Assembly (NCBI GenBank): GCA_964431415.1
Contig: CAYSJS010000001.1
Span: 1,740 to 65,739 of the forward strand
DNA from: an uncultured Candidatus Saccharibacteria bacterium
GTDB lineage: Bacteria; Patescibacteriota; Saccharimonadia; Saccharimonadales; JACDBH01
Length of the DNA stretch: 64,000 bases
Direction: 5' to 3'
The position numbers and the translations under genes are program-made. The notes under the pieces were generated by a model. The model did no database searches. It was given only the letters and a program-made list of their open reading frames with translations, and was not told the origin of the DNA. This document shows positions 1,257-24,275 of the stretch, one piece after another. Each line of letters opens with the position of its first letter. Positions within the stretch are counted from its first letter, which is position 1.

Positions 1257-1496
1257 ATGGGAATGACGATGAAGGGTCTACTTGATCCATATGTTTGTGA
1301 TTATGAATTGTGCCCAAATTTTCAGATAGCATTAGAAGGAGGCATGACTGACGATGAAGCGGCTGGTATTTGTTGTTCGGCTATGAAGCGCATTATAGGG
1401 GGAGACCCTGAAAGATCAGTTACTGCCGCTATGAATGGTGTAGAATGTGGACTTTTTCTAGCTCAAGTAGAAAATAATCAGCAAAAAGCTGAATGA
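1257..1496 (+). CDS. Hypothetical small Cys-rich protein (79 aa)
   Basis: ORF between rpoC and rpsL on the operon strand. No family recognised. Confidence 0.4.
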   Translation: MGMTMKGLLDPYVCDYELCPNFQIALEGGMTDDEAAGICCSAMKRIIGGDPERSVTAAMNGVECGLFLAQVENNQQKAE

Positions 1497-1761: not shown

Positions 1762-2175
1762 TTGCCAACAATCAACCAACTTGTACGCAAGCCGCGTACC
1801 ATAACTAAGTCCAAGACCAAGAGTCCTGCGCTGCAGCGCGTGACGAACAGTCTTAAGACCAAGTCATACGAAAAAGCCGCTCCTTTTAAGCGCGGTGTTT
1901 GTATTAAAGTAACGACCAAAACACCAAAGAAACCAAACTCAGCCCTTCGCAAGGTTGCTCGTGTTCGTTTGAACAACGGCTACGAAGTGTGGGCATACAT
2001 CGGCGGTGAAGGTCACAACCTCCAGGAACACGCCGTGGTGCTTGTTCGTGGTGGACGCGTGCCGGATCTTCCAGGTGTTCGCTATCACATCGTTCGTGGG
2101 TCGCTTGACCTTCAGGGTGTTGCCAACCGCAAGCGCGGCCGCTCAAAGTACGGCGCAAAGAAGGACGGTAAGTAA
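1762..2175 (+). CDS. rpsL: 30S ribosomal protein S12
   Basis: PTINQLVRK..., [15 protein letters not shown] and [15 protein letters not shown] motifs. TTG start. Confidence 0.97.
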
Positions 2176-2176
2176 T

Positions 2177-2377
2177 ATGTCATACGACGCAAGAGAAGTA
2201 GAAGCCGCTTTAATTAATTATGATCCAGAAACGAGTGCCGCTAGACAGCGTAGGCTAGAGGCTCGAAATAGACTCGCTGCAGCTATGCTCGTTGAATCAA
2301 TTGAAGCTAGCGAAGTCGACAGGCAACAAAGTCCACTGCTTCCAGGTGTAGTGGTTGTCTTGGAAGGAGAAATGTAA
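2177..2377 (+). CDS. Orphan 66-aa protein inserted between rpsL and rpsG
   Basis: The ATG lies 1 nt after the rpsL TAA, and the ORF's own TAA overlaps the rpsG ATG (TAATG). The ORF fills the whole gap. No family recognised. Confidence 0.5.
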   Translation: MSYDAREVEAALINYDPETSAARQRRLEARNRLAAAMLVESIEASEVDRQQSPLLPGVVVVLEGEM

Positions 2378-2853
2378 TGCCACGTAAAGTAACCAAATCT
2401 CTCGTTCGAGAAGTCAAACCAGACCGTAAATACAACAACCAACAGGTAACACGTGTTATTAACCGCGTGATGCAAGATGGTAAAAAGCAAACTGCAGAAC
2501 GCCTTGTCTATGAGGGCATGGAAATTGCAGCCAAGAAGCTCAAAGTAGAAAACCCAGTTGAAGTGTTTGAAAAAGCGCTCAACAACATCAAACCATATCT
2601 AGAAACCCGGTCACGCCGCGTTGGTGGCGCAAACTACCAGATTCCTTTTGAAGTAAAAGGCCAGCGCCAGTATCACCTTATGACCATGTGGTTTGTACAA
2701 GCAGCCCGAAGCCGTAAAGGCATCGGCATGGCGGATCGTATTGCAATGGAACTCGTTGATGCCTTCAACGGCACAGGTACCGCTGTCAAGAAACGTGAAG
2801 ATGCGCACAAGATGGCAGAATCTAACCGAGCATTTGCACACTTTGCGAGGTAG
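2377..2853 (+). CDS. rpsG: 30S ribosomal protein S7
   Basis: MPRK... N-terminus, RVGGANYQIPFEV motif, synteny. Confidence 0.97.
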   Translation: MPRKVTKSLVREVKPDRKYNNQQVTRVINRVMQDGKKQTAERLVYEGMEIAAKKLKVENPVEVFEKALNNIKPYLETRSRRVGGANYQIPFEVKGQRQYHLMTMWFVQAARSRKGIGMADRIAMELVDAFNGTGTAVKKREDAHKMAESNRAFAHFAR

Positions 2854-2856
2854 AAA

Positions 2857-3093
2857 ATGGAAGTTCCTCAAAGTGTAATGAGTTTCGTCCAAAGACGGGT
2901 TGAAGCCGCAACGGGTAGACGTGAGATCTACGAAGGTCGCCTGTCTGTTGACCAAATGCATGGCCTTTCAGTGACGCCTGCTCAAGTTTTAATACGTGGC
3001 GCCCTTTGTACTTTGGAGGCTATTGCACAAGGCACAGAAGAATTTCTGACCTCAGATGAAAAGCTCGATGACTTATTTTCACGAAGAAAGTAA
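2857..3093 (+). CDS. Hypothetical 78-aa protein
   Basis: The ORF starts 3 nt after the rpsG stop on the same strand. No family recognised. Confidence 0.45.
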   Translation: MEVPQSVMSFVQRRVEAATGRREIYEGRLSVDQMHGLSVTPAQVLIRGALCTLEAIAQGTEEFLTSDEKLDDLFSRRK

Positions 3094-3134
3094 ACAGTAT
3101 ATGAAAATTATAAAGCCTGTATTGGCTTGAGGAT

Positions 3135-3344
3135 ATGATAATGAGTGAAGGTACGCCACAAAATGGATTTTCGCTTCTTCCTGAACGCTTCGCTCCGGAA
3201 GACCTTTCTGCGATCAGGGAGCTTGCAAGTGAACTCGATAATCCATCGATGGAAATCGTCAGGGCAGCCCTGGGAAGATTTGAGGAGCATATACTCAGAA
3301 GAAGAAATGAAGGTGGAGAAGGTACACCGCCCCCTACTATGTAG
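3135..3344 (+). CDS. Hypothetical 69-aa protein, weakly ribbon-helix-helix-like
   Basis: The segment FSLLPERFAPEDLSAIRELASELDNPSMEIVRAALGRF has a strand-helix-helix pattern (impression only). The start could instead be the ATG at 3141. Confidence 0.4.
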   Translation: MIMSEGTPQNGFSLLPERFAPEDLSAIRELASELDNPSMEIVRAALGRFEEHILRRRNEGGEGTPPPTM

Positions 3345-3367
3345 GTAGCACTACAGAAAGAAAAGCA

Positions 3368-3634
3368 ATGGCAGAAATTGGAGGAAGACTCAAAGACAAT
3401 GCGTTCACTAATGCTGGCTTTGCCGCTCTGGACGACATTGCTGCTGCAGCTCTAAGGAGAGGTCGTCAGGGCCGGGGCTGTGATATTGAACTGCAACTGG
3501 CTTCCACGGGCGATACGTATCCCCTCGACCCGAGCAGGATTTCAGCCATTCAAGACGCGGTTACCTCCACAACTCTGATGCCAGCTGACGCTGTTAGATG
3601 TGTCGCGATGATTGTTCATGGTGTCATAAAATAA
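3368..3634 (+). CDS. Hypothetical 88-aa protein
   Basis: Same-strand ORF. No family recognised. Confidence 0.4.
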   Translation: MAEIGGRLKDNAFTNAGFAALDDIAAAALRRGRQGRGCDIELQLASTGDTYPLDPSRISAIQDAVTSTTLMPADAVRCVAMIVHGVIK

Positions 3635-3716
3635 TAAAACATGCACGAGAATATCAAGAAGCGCTTTGAAGTGTGACGGCCGAGCATTACCTAATAAAAA
3701 AGTCAGGAGAAATACA

Positions 3717-4064
3717 GTGACACAGCAAGAAGCAGAAAATAGCAGAACCTCCCTTGTATTTGGCGTGTCCAGACAATCGGTAGAAGAGCAGTTTTTAAGC
3801 GGACAGGCCGAGAGTCCGTCGGCTATATATTTTGAGTTGTCGCGCCTCTACGTAGCACTTTCAGGATGTGTCGTAGTCGAGACCGACAATACGTTCTTGT
3901 CCGAAAGTGATTTGGCTACGGCCAAACGAGATGCAGAGGCGGCGCTTGCCTATAGTGTGGCGTATCGCAGTTTTTGCAGCGACACATTTCATAACGACAC
4001 CGTTCAACTTCAACTGCTTGCAGGCTATGTCGATAGCCTACTCAAGGCAAAAGACGAAAGCTAA
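3717..4064 (+). CDS. Hypothetical 115-aa acidic protein
   Basis: A GTG at 3717 is preceded by AGGAG (3704-3708). The longer ORF-track start at 3666 (TTG) lacks an RBS. Confidence 0.45.
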   Translation: MTQQEAENSRTSLVFGVSRQSVEEQFLSGQAESPSAIYFELSRLYVALSGCVVVETDNTFLSESDLATAKRDAEAALAYSVAYRSFCSDTFHNDTVQLQLLAGYVDSLLKAKDES

Positions 4065-4106
4065 AAGTATACGTAACTAGCCCTCCGGGCCAAAGGTAAG
4101 GACACC

Positions 4107-4135
4107 TTTACTACAGGGGTAAGCTGTAGTATAAT
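4107..4135 (+). promoter_or_regulatory. Candidate promoter for fusA (TTTACT-N17-TATAAT, preceded by gACACc)
   Basis: Hexamers at 4107-4112 and 4130-4135 with an exact 17-nt spacer. Confidence 0.5.
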
Positions 4136-4170
4136 AAGCCCCTGAAGGTACTAACGCAATAGATGCGGAA

Positions 4171-4256
4171 GTAGATAGTAGTTAGGAAGATGGCTCAAAG
4201 AAGGTTTTCTTTTATACGCCCTGTTCTATCTACCGCCTACTACCTACTAACTACTA
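4171..4256 (+). promoter_or_regulatory. fusA leader GTAG/CTAC inverted-repeat element
   Basis: gtagatagtagttagg (4171-4186) is complementary to ctatctac within 4226-4234 and to ctaactacta (4247-4256). The arm order A-B...A'-B' makes the two pairings competing or pseudoknot-like. Confidence 0.35.
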
Positions 4257-4274
4257 AATTACGAAGGAAGAACT

Positions 4275-6402: not shown

Positions 6403-6999
6403 ATGGCAGAACGTGAAATTGTACGTCTACCGGATGAAATAGAAAATCGCGCACTCACGATCTTGTGCGAAGGCGTGTCGAGCATTCAGGTGTCAATGTC
6501 AAGGCGGAGCATTGCAGAAGTATTTGCGAGTCCTGATTACGACGTAATGGTCGACGGAATTAAAAAGCTAGAGGAGCTTTACAGCATACTCGATCCGCCG
6601 GCTATTGTACTAAGACCGTCTCAAGCTGAAGGTGTGGATATAGATAATCTTCCTTCTCACGACCTAGTCGCCAATGTCGCGAGCGCTATAGCTCTATCAC
6701 AGACCGCGACCTATGATCAAAGAATGGAACTACTAGAAACTTGGGCGGGTATATCGTCAGACGGTCCTTATAGGACTATGCCCTCGCCAGAAGCGGCTTG
6801 GGTTGTTGCACAGGAACAACTTATTGACCAACGGGAATGGGCGACGCTCTCCAGGAATGAGGGCAGGATATTCGAAACAACTGCAATGCTTGAAGAGATC
6901 TACGCGGCCGGTCATCGCCCGAATATAGTAAAACACCTTGGCATACTTGCGAGCGGTGTAATCGGTACACTTGCTCGCGCCGTTTGGTATAGACGTTAA
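6403..6999 (+). CDS. Hypothetical 198-aa protein
   Basis: ORF directly after fusA. No family recognised. Confidence 0.5.
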   Translation: MAEREIVRLPDEIENRALTILCEGVSSIQVSMSRRSIAEVFASPDYDVMVDGIKKLEELYSILDPPAIVLRPSQAEGVDIDNLPSHDLVANVASAIALSQTATYDQRMELLETWAGISSDGPYRTMPSPEAAWVVAQEQLIDQREWATLSRNEGRIFETTAMLEEIYAAGHRPNIVKHLGILASGVIGTLARAVWYRR

Positions 7000-14158: not shown

Positions 14159-14506
14159 ATGAATAATAATGAAATAAGCCCTGTTGCTTCGAATGCTGCA
14201 TTTCGGTTTGCAGAGCAAGGGACCATTGGTCGGACATTGGCGGCCACGATTATAGACACTCCTCAAAGCGAGAGAATTGCCCTGGCCGAGTCCTTGGCAA
14301 GTCTATCCGAGACACATGACGAAGAAGGTGTGCGTACGCGTGCCGGCTGGCTTGCCCGTCAGTTAGTCAAAGAAGTAATCGAAGAAGAACCTTTTTTGCA
14401 CTATGTAGCCGACAGAGAACCGACTTCGTATCGTGATAAACTCGGTAGGCGTGCATTTACGAATGGTCGGCATTCTTCAGGCTTTACACAGCACACCAGT
14501 CCTTAA
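14159..14506 (+). CDS. Hypothetical 115-aa protein
   Basis: ORF after the tuf terminator. No family recognised. Confidence 0.45.
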   Translation: MNNNEISPVASNAAFRFAEQGTIGRTLAATIIDTPQSERIALAESLASLSETHDEEGVRTRAGWLARQLVKEVIEEEPFLHYVADREPTSYRDKLGRRAFTNGRHSSGFTQHTSP

Positions 14507-16637: not shown

Positions 16638-17141
16638 ATGAGATCGAAACTAATGGTTACAGCAGCAGCTTTAACGGTAGGCGGTGGATTACTGACGGGT
16701 TGTAGTGAGCAACGTGCAAGCAGCAAGGAAGAGGCGAGTAACATGGCCTACGTAAGAGCGGTGGAAGACTTTCAAAAAGCAGACCATAAAGGAAGATATC
16801 GACAGCAGTTTCTAGATGATGATGCATATTTAGAACAAATAGGCGACGATGCTACGTGGTGGAAAAAAGGGAGCGACTGCTTGAGCGGTACAATCTACGA
16901 TACTGAGGCTGGCGCAGAACTCAGTACTGAAGACGATATTTTGATAGTGACACCAAATAGACACGGAGAAACGATACTGTACTTCACGGGAATCACACAT
17001 GCAGATACGGTATTAATCCCAGTTCCAGAAAAGGGTGTTGAAGAAATTTTAGAGAAGTTTAATTGCCCAGATGCATCTGACGTAAGAGAAGTAGCGTCGT
17101 ATGATCATCACCTGCTTGTCATAGATCCAAGAGACGAGTAA
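16638..17141 (+). CDS. Putative lipoprotein (167 aa)
   Basis: Signal peptide with lipobox LLTGC (MRSKLMVTAAALTVGGGLLTGCSEQ). Confidence 0.6.
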   Translation: MRSKLMVTAAALTVGGGLLTGCSEQRASSKEEASNMAYVRAVEDFQKADHKGRYRQQFLDDDAYLEQIGDDATWWKKGSDCLSGTIYDTEAGAELSTEDDILIVTPNRHGETILYFTGITHADTVLIPVPEKGVEEILEKFNCPDASDVREVASYDHHLLVIDPRDE

Positions 17142-17203
17142 GAGCATAGTTGTAATATGGTAGCAACGCTTTCGTCATTTTAGTTTTCTAGTAAACTAAG
17201 TGT

Positions 17204-18109
17204 ATGAATCATTTTGGCGCAAGCTTTTCGTTAATATATGCAAGGGAGATGCGGGTAGAACCAAAGGCCTGTCTTGAGGCGGCATTGGAAGACTTAGGAG
17301 TACGTAGGCTCAGATTAATGAGTTACTGGGACGTGCACGAAAAAACTCGCGGCAGCTATGACTTTACCGAATTAGACTGGCAAATTGACATGGCAGAACA
17401 GCATGGGGCAGAAGTATCGCTTTGTTTGGGCCTGCGTCAGCCGCGCTGGCCCGAAAGTCACTGGCCGGAGTGGGCGCTGCAGCTTCCAGATACAGAATGG
17501 CAAGCGGCTCTCTATAGCTTTATAGAAATAGTAGTAAAGAGATATAAAGACAGAAAGTGCATCATTAGCTATCAGCTTGAAAATGAGGCACTCCTAAAGT
17601 CATTTGGACTGCGGAGTAACTTCGACAGAAAAAGACTGGTACGAGAATTTAAACTCGTAAAGCAACTTGACCCATCTCGCCCGGTAATAATGACGACGTC
17701 CGATGCCTGGGGCATCCCGTGGCGCAGACCTTTGCCCGATATTGTCGGCTTTTCAATCTATCGCTACTTATTTGACGCAAAAAAGAACCGGTACGTAAAA
17801 AGCACAAGACGTGCAAGGTTTTATAGGTTCCGCGCTGTACTTATACGTATACTTCGTTTCAGAAAAACATATATCCATGAGCTGCAAGCCGAACCTTGGG
17901 GACCAAAAGCAACCATCGAATTGCCTGTAGATGAGCAGGCAAAAAGCATGAACCTTGCACATGTTCAGGAGGCCGTCCAGTACGCCCAAGATACAACCTT
18001 GCTTCCGGCAGATCTCTGGGGACTGGAATGGTGGTTCTGGCTGAAAACAAAACACGGCCAAACCGAAATATGGAATTACTTGAAACAAGTTTATAAAAGT
18101 ACACACTAA
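17204..18109 (+). CDS. Putative clan GH-A (TIM-barrel) glycoside hydrolase-like protein
   Basis: W..HE...G.YDF..LD.. opening and YQLENEA (a candidate acid/base NE motif) resemble GH5/GH42-type barrels. Assignment by motif only. Confidence 0.45.
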   Translation: MNHFGASFSLIYAREMRVEPKACLEAALEDLGVRRLRLMSYWDVHEKTRGSYDFTELDWQIDMAEQHGAEVSLCLGLRQPRWPESHWPEWALQLPDTEWQAALYSFIEIVVKRYKDRKCIISYQLENEALLKSFGLRSNFDRKRLVREFKLVKQLDPSRPVIMTTSDAWGIPWRRPLPDIVGFSIYRYLFDAKKNRYVKSTRRARFYRFRAVLIRILRFRKTYIHELQAEPWGPKATIELPVDEQAKSMNLAHVQEAVQYAQDTTLLPADLWGLEWWFWLKTKHGQTEIWNYLKQVYKSTH

Positions 18110-20027: not shown

Positions 20028-20881
20028 TGGCTATAAAAGCATATCGCCCTACGACTCCTGGCCAGCGCGGCATGACCACGCAGGATTTTGACACGATTAC
20101 CACAAAGAAGCCGCTTAAGAGCTTAGTAGTGGTAAAGAAGAAGATTTCCGGCCGCAACAACATGGGCCGCATTACGACCCGTCACCAAGGTGGCGGCGTG
20201 CGTCAGTTTTATCGTCTCGTTAACTTTAATCTTCCTGCGGGCACTAAGGCCGTAGTAGAAGAAATAGAATACGACCCAAACCGCTCCGCACGTATTGCAC
20301 GCATTAAAGATCAAGACAATAAGTATCACTATATTTTAGCTGGCAGCGGTATCGTACAGGGCCGCACGGTTGAAGCGGGCGAAGATGCTCCTGTAGAAGC
20401 CGGCAATCGTTTGCCACTCAAAAGCATCCCTGTTGGTAGCACCATTTATGCGATTGAGCTTCAGGTTGGCCGCGGCGCACAGCTTGTTCGCAGCGCCGGA
20501 AATAATGCACAGCTTATGGCAAAAGAGGGCGAGTACGCTCAGGTTCGCTTGCCATCAGGCGAAATCCGCAAAGTACTTGTTGACTGCATGGCTACACTTG
20601 GCACCGTCGGTAACGAACAGCACCAAAACATCAAGATTGGTAAAGCTGGACGCAACCGCAAGAAGGGCATCCGCCCATCTGTACGTGGCGTTGTAATGAA
20701 CGCCGTTGATCACCCACACGGTGGTGGTGACGGTGGTCGTCACGGTGTTGGTGGTGGTAAAAACCATGGTGCTGCTCCACGCACACCTTGGGGTATCAAG
20801 ACTCTTGGCTATAAGACTCGCAAGCGTAAGTCAACCAGCAAGATGATCGTAAAGAGCCGACATGCGGCGAAGAGGAAATAA
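20027..20881 (+). CDS. rplB: 50S ribosomal protein L2
   Basis: GRNNMGRITTRHQGGG and HPHGGGDG motifs. Confidence 0.97.
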   Translation: MAIKAYRPTTPGQRGMTTQDFDTITTKKPLKSLVVVKKKISGRNNMGRITTRHQGGGVRQFYRLVNFNLPAGTKAVVEEIEYDPNRSARIARIKDQDNKYHYILAGSGIVQGRTVEAGEDAPVEAGNRLPLKSIPVGSTIYAIELQVGRGAQLVRSAGNNAQLMAKEGEYAQVRLPSGEIRKVLVDCMATLGTVGNEQHQNIKIGKAGRNRKKGIRPSVRGVVMNAVDHPHGGGDGGRHGVGGGKNHGAAPRTPWGIKTLGYKTRKRKSTSKMIVKSRHAAKRK

Positions 20882-20883
20882 TC

Positions 20884-21132
20884 ATGAGCACTTTTGAACA
20901 AACACCAGACAGTTGGAATGCAGGATTTGAAACTGCTCAATTATTTCCATCTACACCAACAAGTTTTGATCCTCAGCGCAGGTTATTTGCTGCCGCTTGT
21001 GAGGCTGCTCAATGCGGTGTCTCTGGCGTTCCTAACGGCGATAGTCTACTTACTGATCAAGAATTTATTGATGGATTCAGAACAGGTCTCATGCATACGA
21101 CCATAGCAGTAGAAGGAGAAGGAAATGTCTAG
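20884..21132 (+). CDS. Orphan 82-aa acidic protein inserted between rplB and rpsS
   Basis: The ATG is 2 nt after the rplB stop. Its 3' end overlaps the rpsS start by 8 nt and contains the rpsS RBS (GAAGGAGAAGG). No family recognised. Confidence 0.5.
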
Positions 21133-23695: not shown

Positions 23696-24039
23696 TGAAT
23701 ACTCAAACCAAGAAACAAGCATTCAAGATTCGCCTTAAGGTCGGAGATACTGTTATTGTGCGAAGCGGTAAATACAAGGGTAAGACGGGTAAGATAACCG
23801 CTACTCATCCATTTGAAAACAAAGTTACCGTTGAAGGCATTAATATTGTCAAAAAGCATGTTAAGCCTAACCGCACACATCCCCAGGGCGACATTGTTGA
23901 AATTACCAAGCCTATTTGGGTAAGCAAGGTTGGGATCGTAGAGCCAACCAGCAAGAAAGCAAGCAAGATTGAGCACAAAGTTGACGCTAAAGGTGTAAAA
24001 ACCCGTGTATTCAAGCGCACCGGCAAGGAGATAAAGTAA
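23695..24039 (+). CDS. rplX: 50S ribosomal protein L24
   Basis: KVGDTVIVRSGKYKGKTGKI (KOW motif), synteny. Confidence 0.95.
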   Translation: MNTQTKKQAFKIRLKVGDTVIVRSGKYKGKTGKITATHPFENKVTVEGINIVKKHVKPNRTHPQGDIVEITKPIWVSKVGIVEPTSKKASKIEHKVDAKGVKTRVFKRTGKEIK

Positions 24040-24275
24040 TGGGTAGATTTGAAGTTCAATTGCAACCAGGTGAAGCTTGGGTAAGTGGCGGTTTAAGATA
24101 TGCCGATGGATATATAGGAGCTATGGATAGTAATGACCTAGATACTTTATACGTGCAAAGACGTGCTGCTGAAGAAAGACTAAGGGGTGAGCAGCCCAAC
24201 AATCCGGCTTTGCCGGATGATGGCGCGATGAGCGGGGATATTTCCCGCTCATGGGCCGATAAGGAGATCAAGTAA
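24039..24275 (+). CDS. Orphan 78-aa acidic protein inserted between rplX and rplE
   Basis: Both ends are TAATG overlaps: rplX stop with its own ATG at 24037-24041, and its own stop with the rplE ATG at 24273-24277. No family recognised. Confidence 0.55.
   Translation: MGRFEVQLQPGEAWVSGGLRYADGYIGAMDSNDLDTLYVQRRAAEERLRGEQPNNPALPDDGAMSGDISRSWADKEIK

Follow-up and report, generated by a model that had tools for sequence, protein, structure and literature searches.

The morons found in phage genomes usually have a promoter and a terminator of their own. Bacterial species-specific orphans typically have a higher isoelectric point (pI) than conserved genes (Vakirlis and Kupczok 2024, PMC11293555). 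A further system concerns the junction of rpsL and rpsG, the genes for ribosomal proteins S12 and S7: in Escherichia coli most S7 synthesis is coupled to translation of S12, and the S7-binding RNA that lies between the two genes has been reported to be confined to Gammaproteobacteria (PMC3616713). Here we examine the same junction in a stretch of 64,000 nucleotides (nt), hereafter the window, from an uncultured Saccharibacteria bacterium (TM7, Saccharimonadales; contig CAYSJS010000001.1). The window is a chromosome segment that holds rpoC′, the str operon and the S10, spc and alpha ribosomal-protein clusters. Between its rpsL and rpsG lies orf66, an acidic orphan open reading frame (ORF) that abuts both neighbours.

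We find that the junction was ancestrally direct, and that in relatives where it has expanded it is nearly always occupied by an ORF that, like orf66, is flush with the genes on either side. These ORFs, which we call fillers, are for the most part unrelated to one another. Two further fillers occupy ribosomal-protein junctions elsewhere in the window.

Results

Geometry and signals of orf66

The ORF occupies positions 2177..2377 on the + strand and consists of 66 sense codons and a TAA stop (2375-2377). Its upstream partner, rpsL (1762..2175, + strand; Pfam PF00164 Ribosom_S12_S23, E=2.8e-36), begins with TTG and ends with TAA at 2173-2175; its downstream partner, rpsG, is found at 2377..2853 on the same strand (Pfam PF00177 Ribosomal_S7, E=4.7e-53). 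At the 5′ junction, TAA-T-ATG (2173..2179, + strand), a single spacer base, T2176, separates the rpsL stop from the orf66 ATG (2177-2179). At the 3′ junction, TAATG (2375..2379, + strand), A2377 is common to the orf66 TAA and the rpsG ATG, giving a 1-base overlap. A preliminary description of the locus had reported precisely this arrangement, and the sequence and the ORF list agree with it in every detail. It had further claimed that orf66 uses a coupling native to the operon; the TAATG stop-start overlap does indeed recur at nine other junctions in the window (18903, 20025, 23024, 23693, 24037, 24273, 24851, 25120 and 32544).

The arrangement is that of coupled cistrons: at both ends of orf66 stop and start overlap or lie a few nt apart, and both from rpsL to orf66 and from orf66 to rpsG the 3′ end of the first ORF contains the Shine-Dalgarno (SD) motif for the next. 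The SD of rpsG, GGAAGGAG (2362..2369, + strand), falls within the last five codons of orf66 (…L-E-G-E-M), 7 nt before the rpsG ATG. An SD-like GAAGGA (2160-2165, + strand) falls within the last codons of rpsL, 11 nt before the orf66 ATG, which is a rather long spacer. The orf66 frame is open further in the 5′ direction, to a GTG at 2006 inside rpsL, a point on which the preliminary description needs correction; the ATG at 2177 is both the start picked by gene callers and the one consistent with the coupling geometry. Nineteen contigs carry orf66, and gene callers annotated it on all nine same-strain contigs that were seen in detail.

Codon use in orf66 is atypical, with a GC content at third codon positions of 0.32 versus 0.48 for the genes of the window. 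Under a codon model built from the window, orf66 ranks at the 23rd percentile among windows of real genes and in the top 14% among shadow ORFs. No internal promoter was found in the orf66 region, and no tandem repeats or flanking direct or inverted repeats were found in or around the ORF. Near the 3′ end of orf66, before the rpsG SD, there is a weak hairpin (2333..2354; 7-bp stem and 8-nt loop) followed by TTGTCTTGG. A simple scan flagged this hairpin, with its T-rich tail, as terminator-like; it is probably non-functional, and translation of orf66 would melt it.

An acidic orphan product

The 66-amino-acid (aa) product, which includes the peptide EVEAALINYDPETSAAR, has a pI of 4.52 and a net charge of −5. 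In the AlphaFold2 model, predicted from the single sequence, residues 5-13 form a short helix and residues 17-48 one of 32 residues, and the C-terminal tail is disordered; the mean pLDDT is 77. The impression first gained from the letters alone, of an acidic and helical-looking product that resembles nothing familiar, thus holds in all its parts. A word-indexed search of 5.8 billion protein clusters retrieved orf66 alone (one cluster with one member sequence), as did a full phmmer search of 1.84 billion representatives. There was no match in Pfam, PHROGs or NCBIfam, in back-translated scans of JGI metagenomes and IMG/VR, or in tblastn searches of phage and plasmid collections; the best match among PDB sequences (E=2.6) is noise, and Foldseek comparison of the AlphaFold2 model with the PDB gave nothing meaningful.

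By these searches orf66 is an orphan: it has no detectable homologue outside the species, and the corresponding site of the outgroup is without an ORF. With regard to a strict de novo origin, there is no ancestral non-coding DNA at the site, the junction having been direct, and no donor was found within the 64-kb window in any of six frames. A source by local duplication was sought with blastn and six-frame tblastn of the window, and no second copy was found; nor was anything convincing found by way of paralogy among the window's small orphans. orf66 does not bear the marks of a transposable or other mobile element, having no flanking direct or inverted repeats and no further copy in the window; only the sister filler at 24039..24275, described below, has a duplicated junction.

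Flush fillers at an ancestrally direct junction

Loci of relatives were gathered by way of S7, 80 from species-representative genomes and 80 from metagenomes, and the rpsL stop and the rpsG start were located in each. The closer relatives, in which S7 shares at least 70% identity with that of the window, make up 99 distinct loci; the gap is no longer than 3 nt in 62, between 4 and 59 nt in none, and at least 60 nt in 37 (74-337 nt). More distant Saccharibacteria (S7 identity 60-70%) contributed 22 distinct loci, all 22 of which have gaps of at most 3 nt, with none of 4-59 nt and none of 60 nt or more. The commonest direct form, both identity groups combined, is the TAATG-type 1-nt overlap (39 loci). 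Because the majority of the closer loci and every one of the more distant loci join directly, the ancestral state of the rpsL-rpsG junction is direct stop-start coupling, with no intercistronic region.

Thirty-three of the 37 expanded gaps are filled by a flush + strand ORF of 38-112 aa that covers at least 97% of the gap, and all gaps longer than 136 nt are filled. All 33 fillers start with ATG, placed between −4 and +5 nt relative to the rpsL stop, and they end between −3 and +13 nt around the rpsG ATG. When the interiors of the gaps were shuffled with both junctions kept, 1.26 flush ORFs were expected, against the 33 observed; flushness at the 3′ end is partly automatic, in that the first rpsG codons hold stops in both alternative frames, and the shuffle control allows for this. 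The two other frames of the fillers contain 5.6 and 9.4 stops per 100 codons. In those cases where junction sequences were listed, a GGAG-like motif stands at the corresponding spot before rpsG in nearly every related filler.

Loss of the frame in relatives had been named beforehand as one observation that would count against a coding role for orf66. Relatives do not bear it out: 33 of the 37 expanded junctions are open and flush, and in the one homologous pair of fillers from the window's own clade (L010 and L091) the indels measure 3 and 6 nt. Comparison of the sequences indicates that the open frame is maintained by selection across the clade and, because it is so maintained, it is very unlikely, by extension, that orf66 is a chance ORF. 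Nor is an insert of this kind unique to this junction or genome.

On a neighbour-joining tree of S12+S7 the fillers are scattered among lineages with direct junctions, and there must therefore have been many gains or replacements. The nearest relatives of orf66's genome all carry fillers, of 201-226 nt: L090 (S7 96% identical), L091 (93%), L010 (91%), L093 and L094. A further locus of the same clade, L095, has a direct junction. Compared with these five fillers, orf66 shows no detectable similarity (protein Smith-Waterman, shuffle p=0.17-0.71). A local DNA alignment of orf66 with the L090 filler (p=0.007) was judged to be due to chance, since the 20 nt that match do not occupy corresponding positions. 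Between the window and L090 synonymous sites have already diverged by ∼0.9-1.3, a level at which unconstrained sequence would be unrecognisable, and hence, on sequence alone, orf66 and the neighbouring filler could yet be orthologous.

Relatedness, chemistry and constraint of the fillers

The 33 fillers at this one junction fall into ∼27 unrelated sequence groups. An all-against-all blastp comparison links only L010 with L091, L046 with L055, L053 with L137, and L132 with L134 and L135; a weaker motif family, …RE[IL]…G……[KR]KF, is made up of L038, L115 and L120, and a hidden Markov model (HMM) of it revealed no link to orf66. Pairs of fillers scoring at least 35 number 16, versus 7.3 ± 2.5 in shuffles, a modest excess.

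What most of the fillers share is acidity: among those of at least 50 aa, 26 of 27 have a pI below 5.5. The pooled fillers contain 17.0% aspartate plus glutamate and 7.8% lysine plus arginine, where a random stop-free frame of the same base composition would have 7.4% and 14.2%, and the window's non-ribosomal genes have 11.0% and 10.6%. Acidity is not a default property of orphans, since typical bacterial species-specific orphans are reported to be more basic than conserved genes (PMC11293555). The pooled fillers also display a coding-like periodicity, G occupying codon position 1 in 39% of cases, equal to the flanking genes; their third positions are AT-richer than those of ribosomal-protein genes.

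Constraint is far from uniform. The L132 and L134 fillers are 79% identical at the DNA level and are separated by compensated frameshifts, but are still open and flush, with a ratio of nonsynonymous to synonymous divergence (dN/dS) of ∼1.4; for L053 and L137 the ratio is ∼0.67. In both pairs the filler DNA is more conserved than the synonymous sites of the flanking genes. In these short fillers it is the frame that is kept and not the peptide. The short fillers (L132, L134 and L135, 116 nt; L053 and L137, 133-136 nt) contain 7-nt tandem repeats (GTTTACA ×3.5, CTCAAAA ×4) or are low-complexity and A/C-rich. The fillers of L010 and L091 share a conserved N-terminal part and differ beyond it; their dN of 0.53 compares with a synonymous divergence of 0.40-0.55 in the flanking genes.

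A further group is the DGQVIREIIPGG…RSRFVP…DDG family (DGQ for short; P0002-P0009, L046, L055 and L170-L175), whose proteins are 82-108 aa long, are grouped under eight cluster representatives and have no Pfam domain. All six members with examined context occupy this junction, and each overlaps the rpsL before it and the rpsG after it. Membership of orf66 in this family was tried and rejected (hmmsearch E=0.53 in a 169-sequence database, not significant). DGQ fillers are still 79% identical where S12+S7 have diverged about as far as they have from the window to L090, whereas the fillers of the window and L090 stand at random-level identity; orf66 is therefore either unconstrained or not orthologous to the fillers of its neighbours. 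As a set, the fillers range from constraint on the frame only to a constrained protein.

The question of an S7 operator

The preliminary description had proposed that orf66 replaces an autoregulatory region of the E. coli type, through which S7 controls its own operon. This proposal is not supported: the ancestral junction was direct and so held nothing to be replaced, and the S7-binding RNA, as stated above, is reported to be confined to Gammaproteobacteria. Rfam returned no match in the orf66 region at the gathering score or at E values up to 5, its folding is no more stable than that of shuffled sequence (z=+0.68), and the DNA of the gaps is not conserved between species. Two specific candidates were rejected. 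An S7 leader RNA of the E. coli type does not fit a region that is an ORF flush at both ends and lacks both a structure signal and an Rfam match; a regulatory leader peptide or attenuator does not fit 66 codons with no excess structure, a weak 7-bp hairpin only and nothing conserved between species.

Sister fillers in the window

The first of the two sister fillers lies between rplB and rpsS (20884..21132, + strand) and encodes an 82-aa orphan (orf82) of pI 4.05; rplB ends at 20881 and rpsS starts at 21125, which gives an 8-nt overlap. The second lies between rplX and rplE (24039..24275, + strand), encodes a 78-aa orphan (orf78b) of pI 4.50 and has TAATG at both ends. Neither has a Pfam match, and neither has a donor copy in six frames of the 64-kb window. 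All three flush fillers in the window are acidic.

In relatives these junctions are without inserts. The rplX/rplE junction is a direct TAATG in L178, L180 and L181 (uL24 94%, 88% and 87% identical, respectively), and the rplB/rpsS gap is 2 nt in L180 and L181. By this comparison both fillers are species-specific insertions. At rplX/rplE the window has two versions of the ancestral 24-nt junction, which agree at 20 of 24 positions: ACCGGCAAGGAGATAAAGTAATGG precedes the filler and GCCGATAAGGAGATCAAGTAATGG follows it. Relatives have only one. Owing to this duplication the last codons of the filler repeat the C-terminus of uL24 (KEIK and stop). At rplB/rpsS the insert interrupts codon 2 of the ancestral rpsS and introduces a new SD and a new ATG. 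The Ser-2 codon of rpsS is TCT in the window and AGT in relatives. To judge from their sequences, each of the three inserts in the window looks like one operon period, made up of a gene body and the start that follows it.

The rpsG-fusA gap and neighbouring orphans

Downstream of rpsG, before fusA, the window has four small orphan ORFs on the + strand, most with an SD-like motif of their own: 2857..3093 (78 aa), 3135..3344 (69 aa), 3368..3634 (88 aa) and 3666..4064 (132 aa). They are not flush with each other. Across ∼70 related species the rpsG-fusA gap (140-2071 nt) nearly always holds + strand ORFs, the first of which usually begins 0-10 nt past the rpsG stop; in gaps of at least 300 nt mean ORF coverage is 0.90 on the + strand versus 0.42 on the − strand. 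When small ORFs from the rpsL-rpsG and rpsG-fusA gaps are pooled, 109 of 160 are blastp singletons. The rpsG-fusA ORFs, which are mostly unrelated to one another, have a median pI of 5.3 and are less uniform in their acidity than the flush fillers of rpsL-rpsG; CxxC or CPxxC motifs stand at the start of several. The sizes of the two gaps are not linked (Spearman rho=0.15, p=0.19).

One contig, L158 (1..1652), whose S7 is 98% identical to that of the window over the 90 residues it contains, has an rpsG-fusA gap of 377 nt with one ORF of 119 aa, where the window has the four ORFs (2854..4274). Homologues of this ORF occur in two distant lineages, L010 and L053, but not among the window's four. 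The case suggests that the content of this slot changes by replacement of cassettes rather than by drift.

Other oddities of the region may be recorded here. Two non-ribosomal genes (16638..18109) lie between rpsJ and rplC and break the usual order of the S10 operon; one is a 167-aa ORF without a family match and the other a 301-aa ORF with weak matches to glycosyl-hydrolase TIM barrels. A 115-aa orphan follows tuf (14159..14506), an acidic, Cys-rich 79-aa orphan without a family match lies between rpoC and rpsL (1257..1496), and an acidic 198-aa orphan, also without a family match, directly follows fusA (6403..6999). In tblastn searches neither the 79-aa nor the 198-aa orphan was found at the corresponding position in relatives, save for a weak match of the latter in L136 (28% identity). 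The same-strain contig L004 is identical to the window up to 4693 and then shows 41 differences in ∼170 nt within fusA (∼2990..3319 of L004; 4694..4866 of the window), which could be a recombination tract or an assembly chimera.

Discussion

A proposed bridge for ribosomes

The reading that we put forward, at what we regard as even odds, is that orf66 is a young species-specific insertion, translated as a bridge that carries ribosomes from rpsL to rpsG, with little constraint on its peptide beyond being acidic and harmless. On this account ∼200 nt would have been inserted into a junction at which rpsL and rpsG met stop-to-start. The simplest course of events, by comparison with the direct junction of L095 (…GGTAAATAATCATGCCAAGG), is that the former rpsG ATG, together with the GAAGGA at the end of rpsL, would now start orf66, and that the 3′ end of the insert would have supplied the new SD GGAAGGAG, the stop and the new rpsG ATG. 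Ribosomes finishing S12 would reinitiate on orf66 and would then be handed on to rpsG by termination-reinitiation, with the effect that expression of rpsG would depend on translation of orf66. Selection would bear mainly on the open and flush frame, which keeps rpsG coupled and spares a very highly expressed mRNA an untranslated stretch. It would also keep the by-product peptide harmless, that is acidic and soluble, and probably would not preserve a specific amino-acid sequence. The account draws on the placement of stops, starts and SDs, on the excess of flush ORFs at a junction that was once direct, on the scatter and mutual unrelatedness of the fillers, on open frames that outlast the peptide sequence, on the dN of the L010 and L091 fillers, on the orphan status and atypical codon use of orf66, and on the two further acidic orphans of the same genome; E. 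coli, with most of its S7 synthesis coupled to S12, is a precedent.

Several observations weigh against this account. The acidity of the fillers and their codon periodicity imply selection on the chemistry of the product itself, and nothing of the kind would be expected of a purely passive spacer. The DGQ family is under clear purifying selection: the proportion of nonsynonymous differences (pN) is 0.07-0.42 versus 0.35-0.98 for synonymous ones (pS), with dN/dS of ∼0.2 where calculable, and it follows that fillers can be working proteins. One clade (L045/L123, L057 and L119/L121) has untranslated gaps of 74-136 nt; these are the four unfilled gaps, they are related to each other in DNA sequence, and they mean that translation across the gap is not strictly required. 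rpsG, moreover, has a good SD of its own. Finally, the same-strain contigs L001-L009 offer no single-nucleotide polymorphism in orf66 by which to gauge its own constraint (L176 and L177 are also of the same strain). The untranslated spacers of the L045/L123, L057 and L119/L121 clade carry a strong SD and, judged by sequence, could be a conserved non-coding leader.

Weighing the alternatives

The chief rival is that orf66 encodes a working small acidic protein, which rides the str operon for stoichiometric expression at the level of ribosomal proteins, its flushness being normal operon packing; it might serve the very basic S12 and S7 as a polyanionic escort or help in their assembly, or it might be a fast-evolving factor in interactions with the host bacterium or with phage. 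We regard this as a serious contender, if a doubtful one. It would account for the acidity of mutually unrelated fillers and of all three fillers in the window against a neutral non-ribosomal background and against the more basic norm of species-specific orphans (PMC11293555), as well as for the protein-like composition of the pool. The constrained DGQ family at the very same junction, the motif conserved in L038, L115 and L120, the modest excess of similar filler pairs and the confidently predicted long helix of orf66 all point the same way. Yet orf66 has no homologue even in the relative with 96% identical S7, whose filler is of similar length but different, although fillers of the DGQ clade stay recognisable at comparable S12+S7 divergence. 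Most related species have the same S12 and S7 and no filler, and there can thus be no general requirement for one; the short fillers tolerate frameshifts; and three unrelated functional gains at three ribosomal-protein junctions are a less economical account than a mutational process combined with selection.

A different kind of proposal, which concerns origin and is compatible with either the bridge or the working protein, is that fillers are mobile cassettes, one operon period each, copied between SD…TAATG junctions by recombination at short similar sequences. The copying would take place within or between Saccharibacteria genomes, and the source of orf66 would be unsampled. We think this improbable. 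The two junction copies that flank the rplX/rplE filler, the rplB/rpsS insert with its new SD and ATG in codon 2 of the ancestral rpsS, the replacement indicated by the L158 ORF in the rpsG-fusA gap and the patchy distribution of fillers on the tree would each be expected of such cassettes. Against it, no donor of orf66, orf82 or orf78b was found in six frames of the window, nor any in protein collections, phages or plasmids, orf66 lacks flanking direct or inverted repeats, and the junction pairs of 32 rpsL-rpsG fillers are no more alike within than between loci (permutation p=0.58). The remaining possibility, that the 200-nt stretch is an untranslated regulatory spacer (an S7 operator or an attenuator) and its open frame incidental, is close to excluded, and we give it hardly any weight. 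It could appeal to the operator that E. coli has between rpsL and rpsG, to the extended rpsL-rpsG distances that are common in bacteria (PMC3616713) and to the weak hairpin with its T-rich tail before the rpsG SD. It is at odds with the excess of flush ORFs over the shuffled expectation, with the absence of any Rfam match, of unusual folding and of sequence conservation among the gaps, and with the coding periodicity of the pooled filler frames.

A broader picture, more speculative than the bridge reading and one that we would call unlikely at present, is that the stop-start junctions of ribosomal-protein genes in Saccharimonadales act as landing pads for mini-genes. Inserts would be forced into high translation, and the survivors would be those that are open, in phase, acidic and harmless; some, such as the DGQVIREIIPGG family, would become constrained, possibly as polyanionic escorts of the basic ribosomal proteins encoded to either side, and orf66 and its two sisters would represent the youngest stage. 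If true, the landing pads would amount to a natural replicated experiment in bacterial protein birth.

Implications

Operons of ribosomal proteins are commonly regarded as frozen. In the present case unrelated sequence has entered the best-conserved junctions of a reduced genome time and again, and the rule for the survival of inserts can be put in three words: open, flush, acidic. The system bears on how far bacterial expression relies on the hand-over of ribosomes between cistrons, and on the properties that allow a random-like peptide to be tolerated when it is very highly expressed. It bears also on the beginnings of orphan proteins, in that fillers extend from apparently unconstrained ones with frameshifts to a family with a dN/dS of ∼0.2. 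At the practical level, pipelines that concatenate ribosomal proteins, and annotators that discard small ORFs, should expect inserts of this kind in metagenome-assembled Saccharibacteria. No report of such fillers was found in the searchable literature, which is absence of evidence only.

Comparison with known systems

With coupled ribosomal-protein cistrons orf66 shares the TAATG overlap, the 1-nt spacer after the rpsL stop and an SD within the 3′ end of the upstream ORF. It differs in being a species-specific orphan lodged between partners that are directly coupled in most relatives, and not a conserved member of the operon. The S7 operator of the E. coli str operon is alike in genomic position and in its bearing on coupled translation from S12 to S7; that operator, however, is an untranslated, structured RNA bound by S7, whereas the orf66 region is an ORF with no structure signal.

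Species-specific orphans and de novo candidates (Vakirlis and Kupczok 2024, PMC11293555) resemble orf66 and its kind in having no homologue outside the species, in shortness, in having fewer optimal codons and in being absent from the outgroup. The fillers are set apart from them by strong acidity, by flush ends, by their place in the most conserved and most highly expressed operons, and by the filling of one and the same site, in many separate lineages, with ORFs that are unrelated.

In this last respect they call to mind the morons of phages, which are likewise small, unrelated and lineage-specific ORFs at one slot between conserved neighbours; the rpsG-fusA gap adds evidence of replacement. 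The fillers differ from morons in that they have no promoter or terminator of their own, rely on transcription of the host operon and on coupling, and match nothing in phages or plasmids. Orphan small ORFs and translational coupling are both known kinds of thing. What is new here is their recurrence at one site, the flush rule that they obey, their acidity, and their location inside ribosomal-protein operons.

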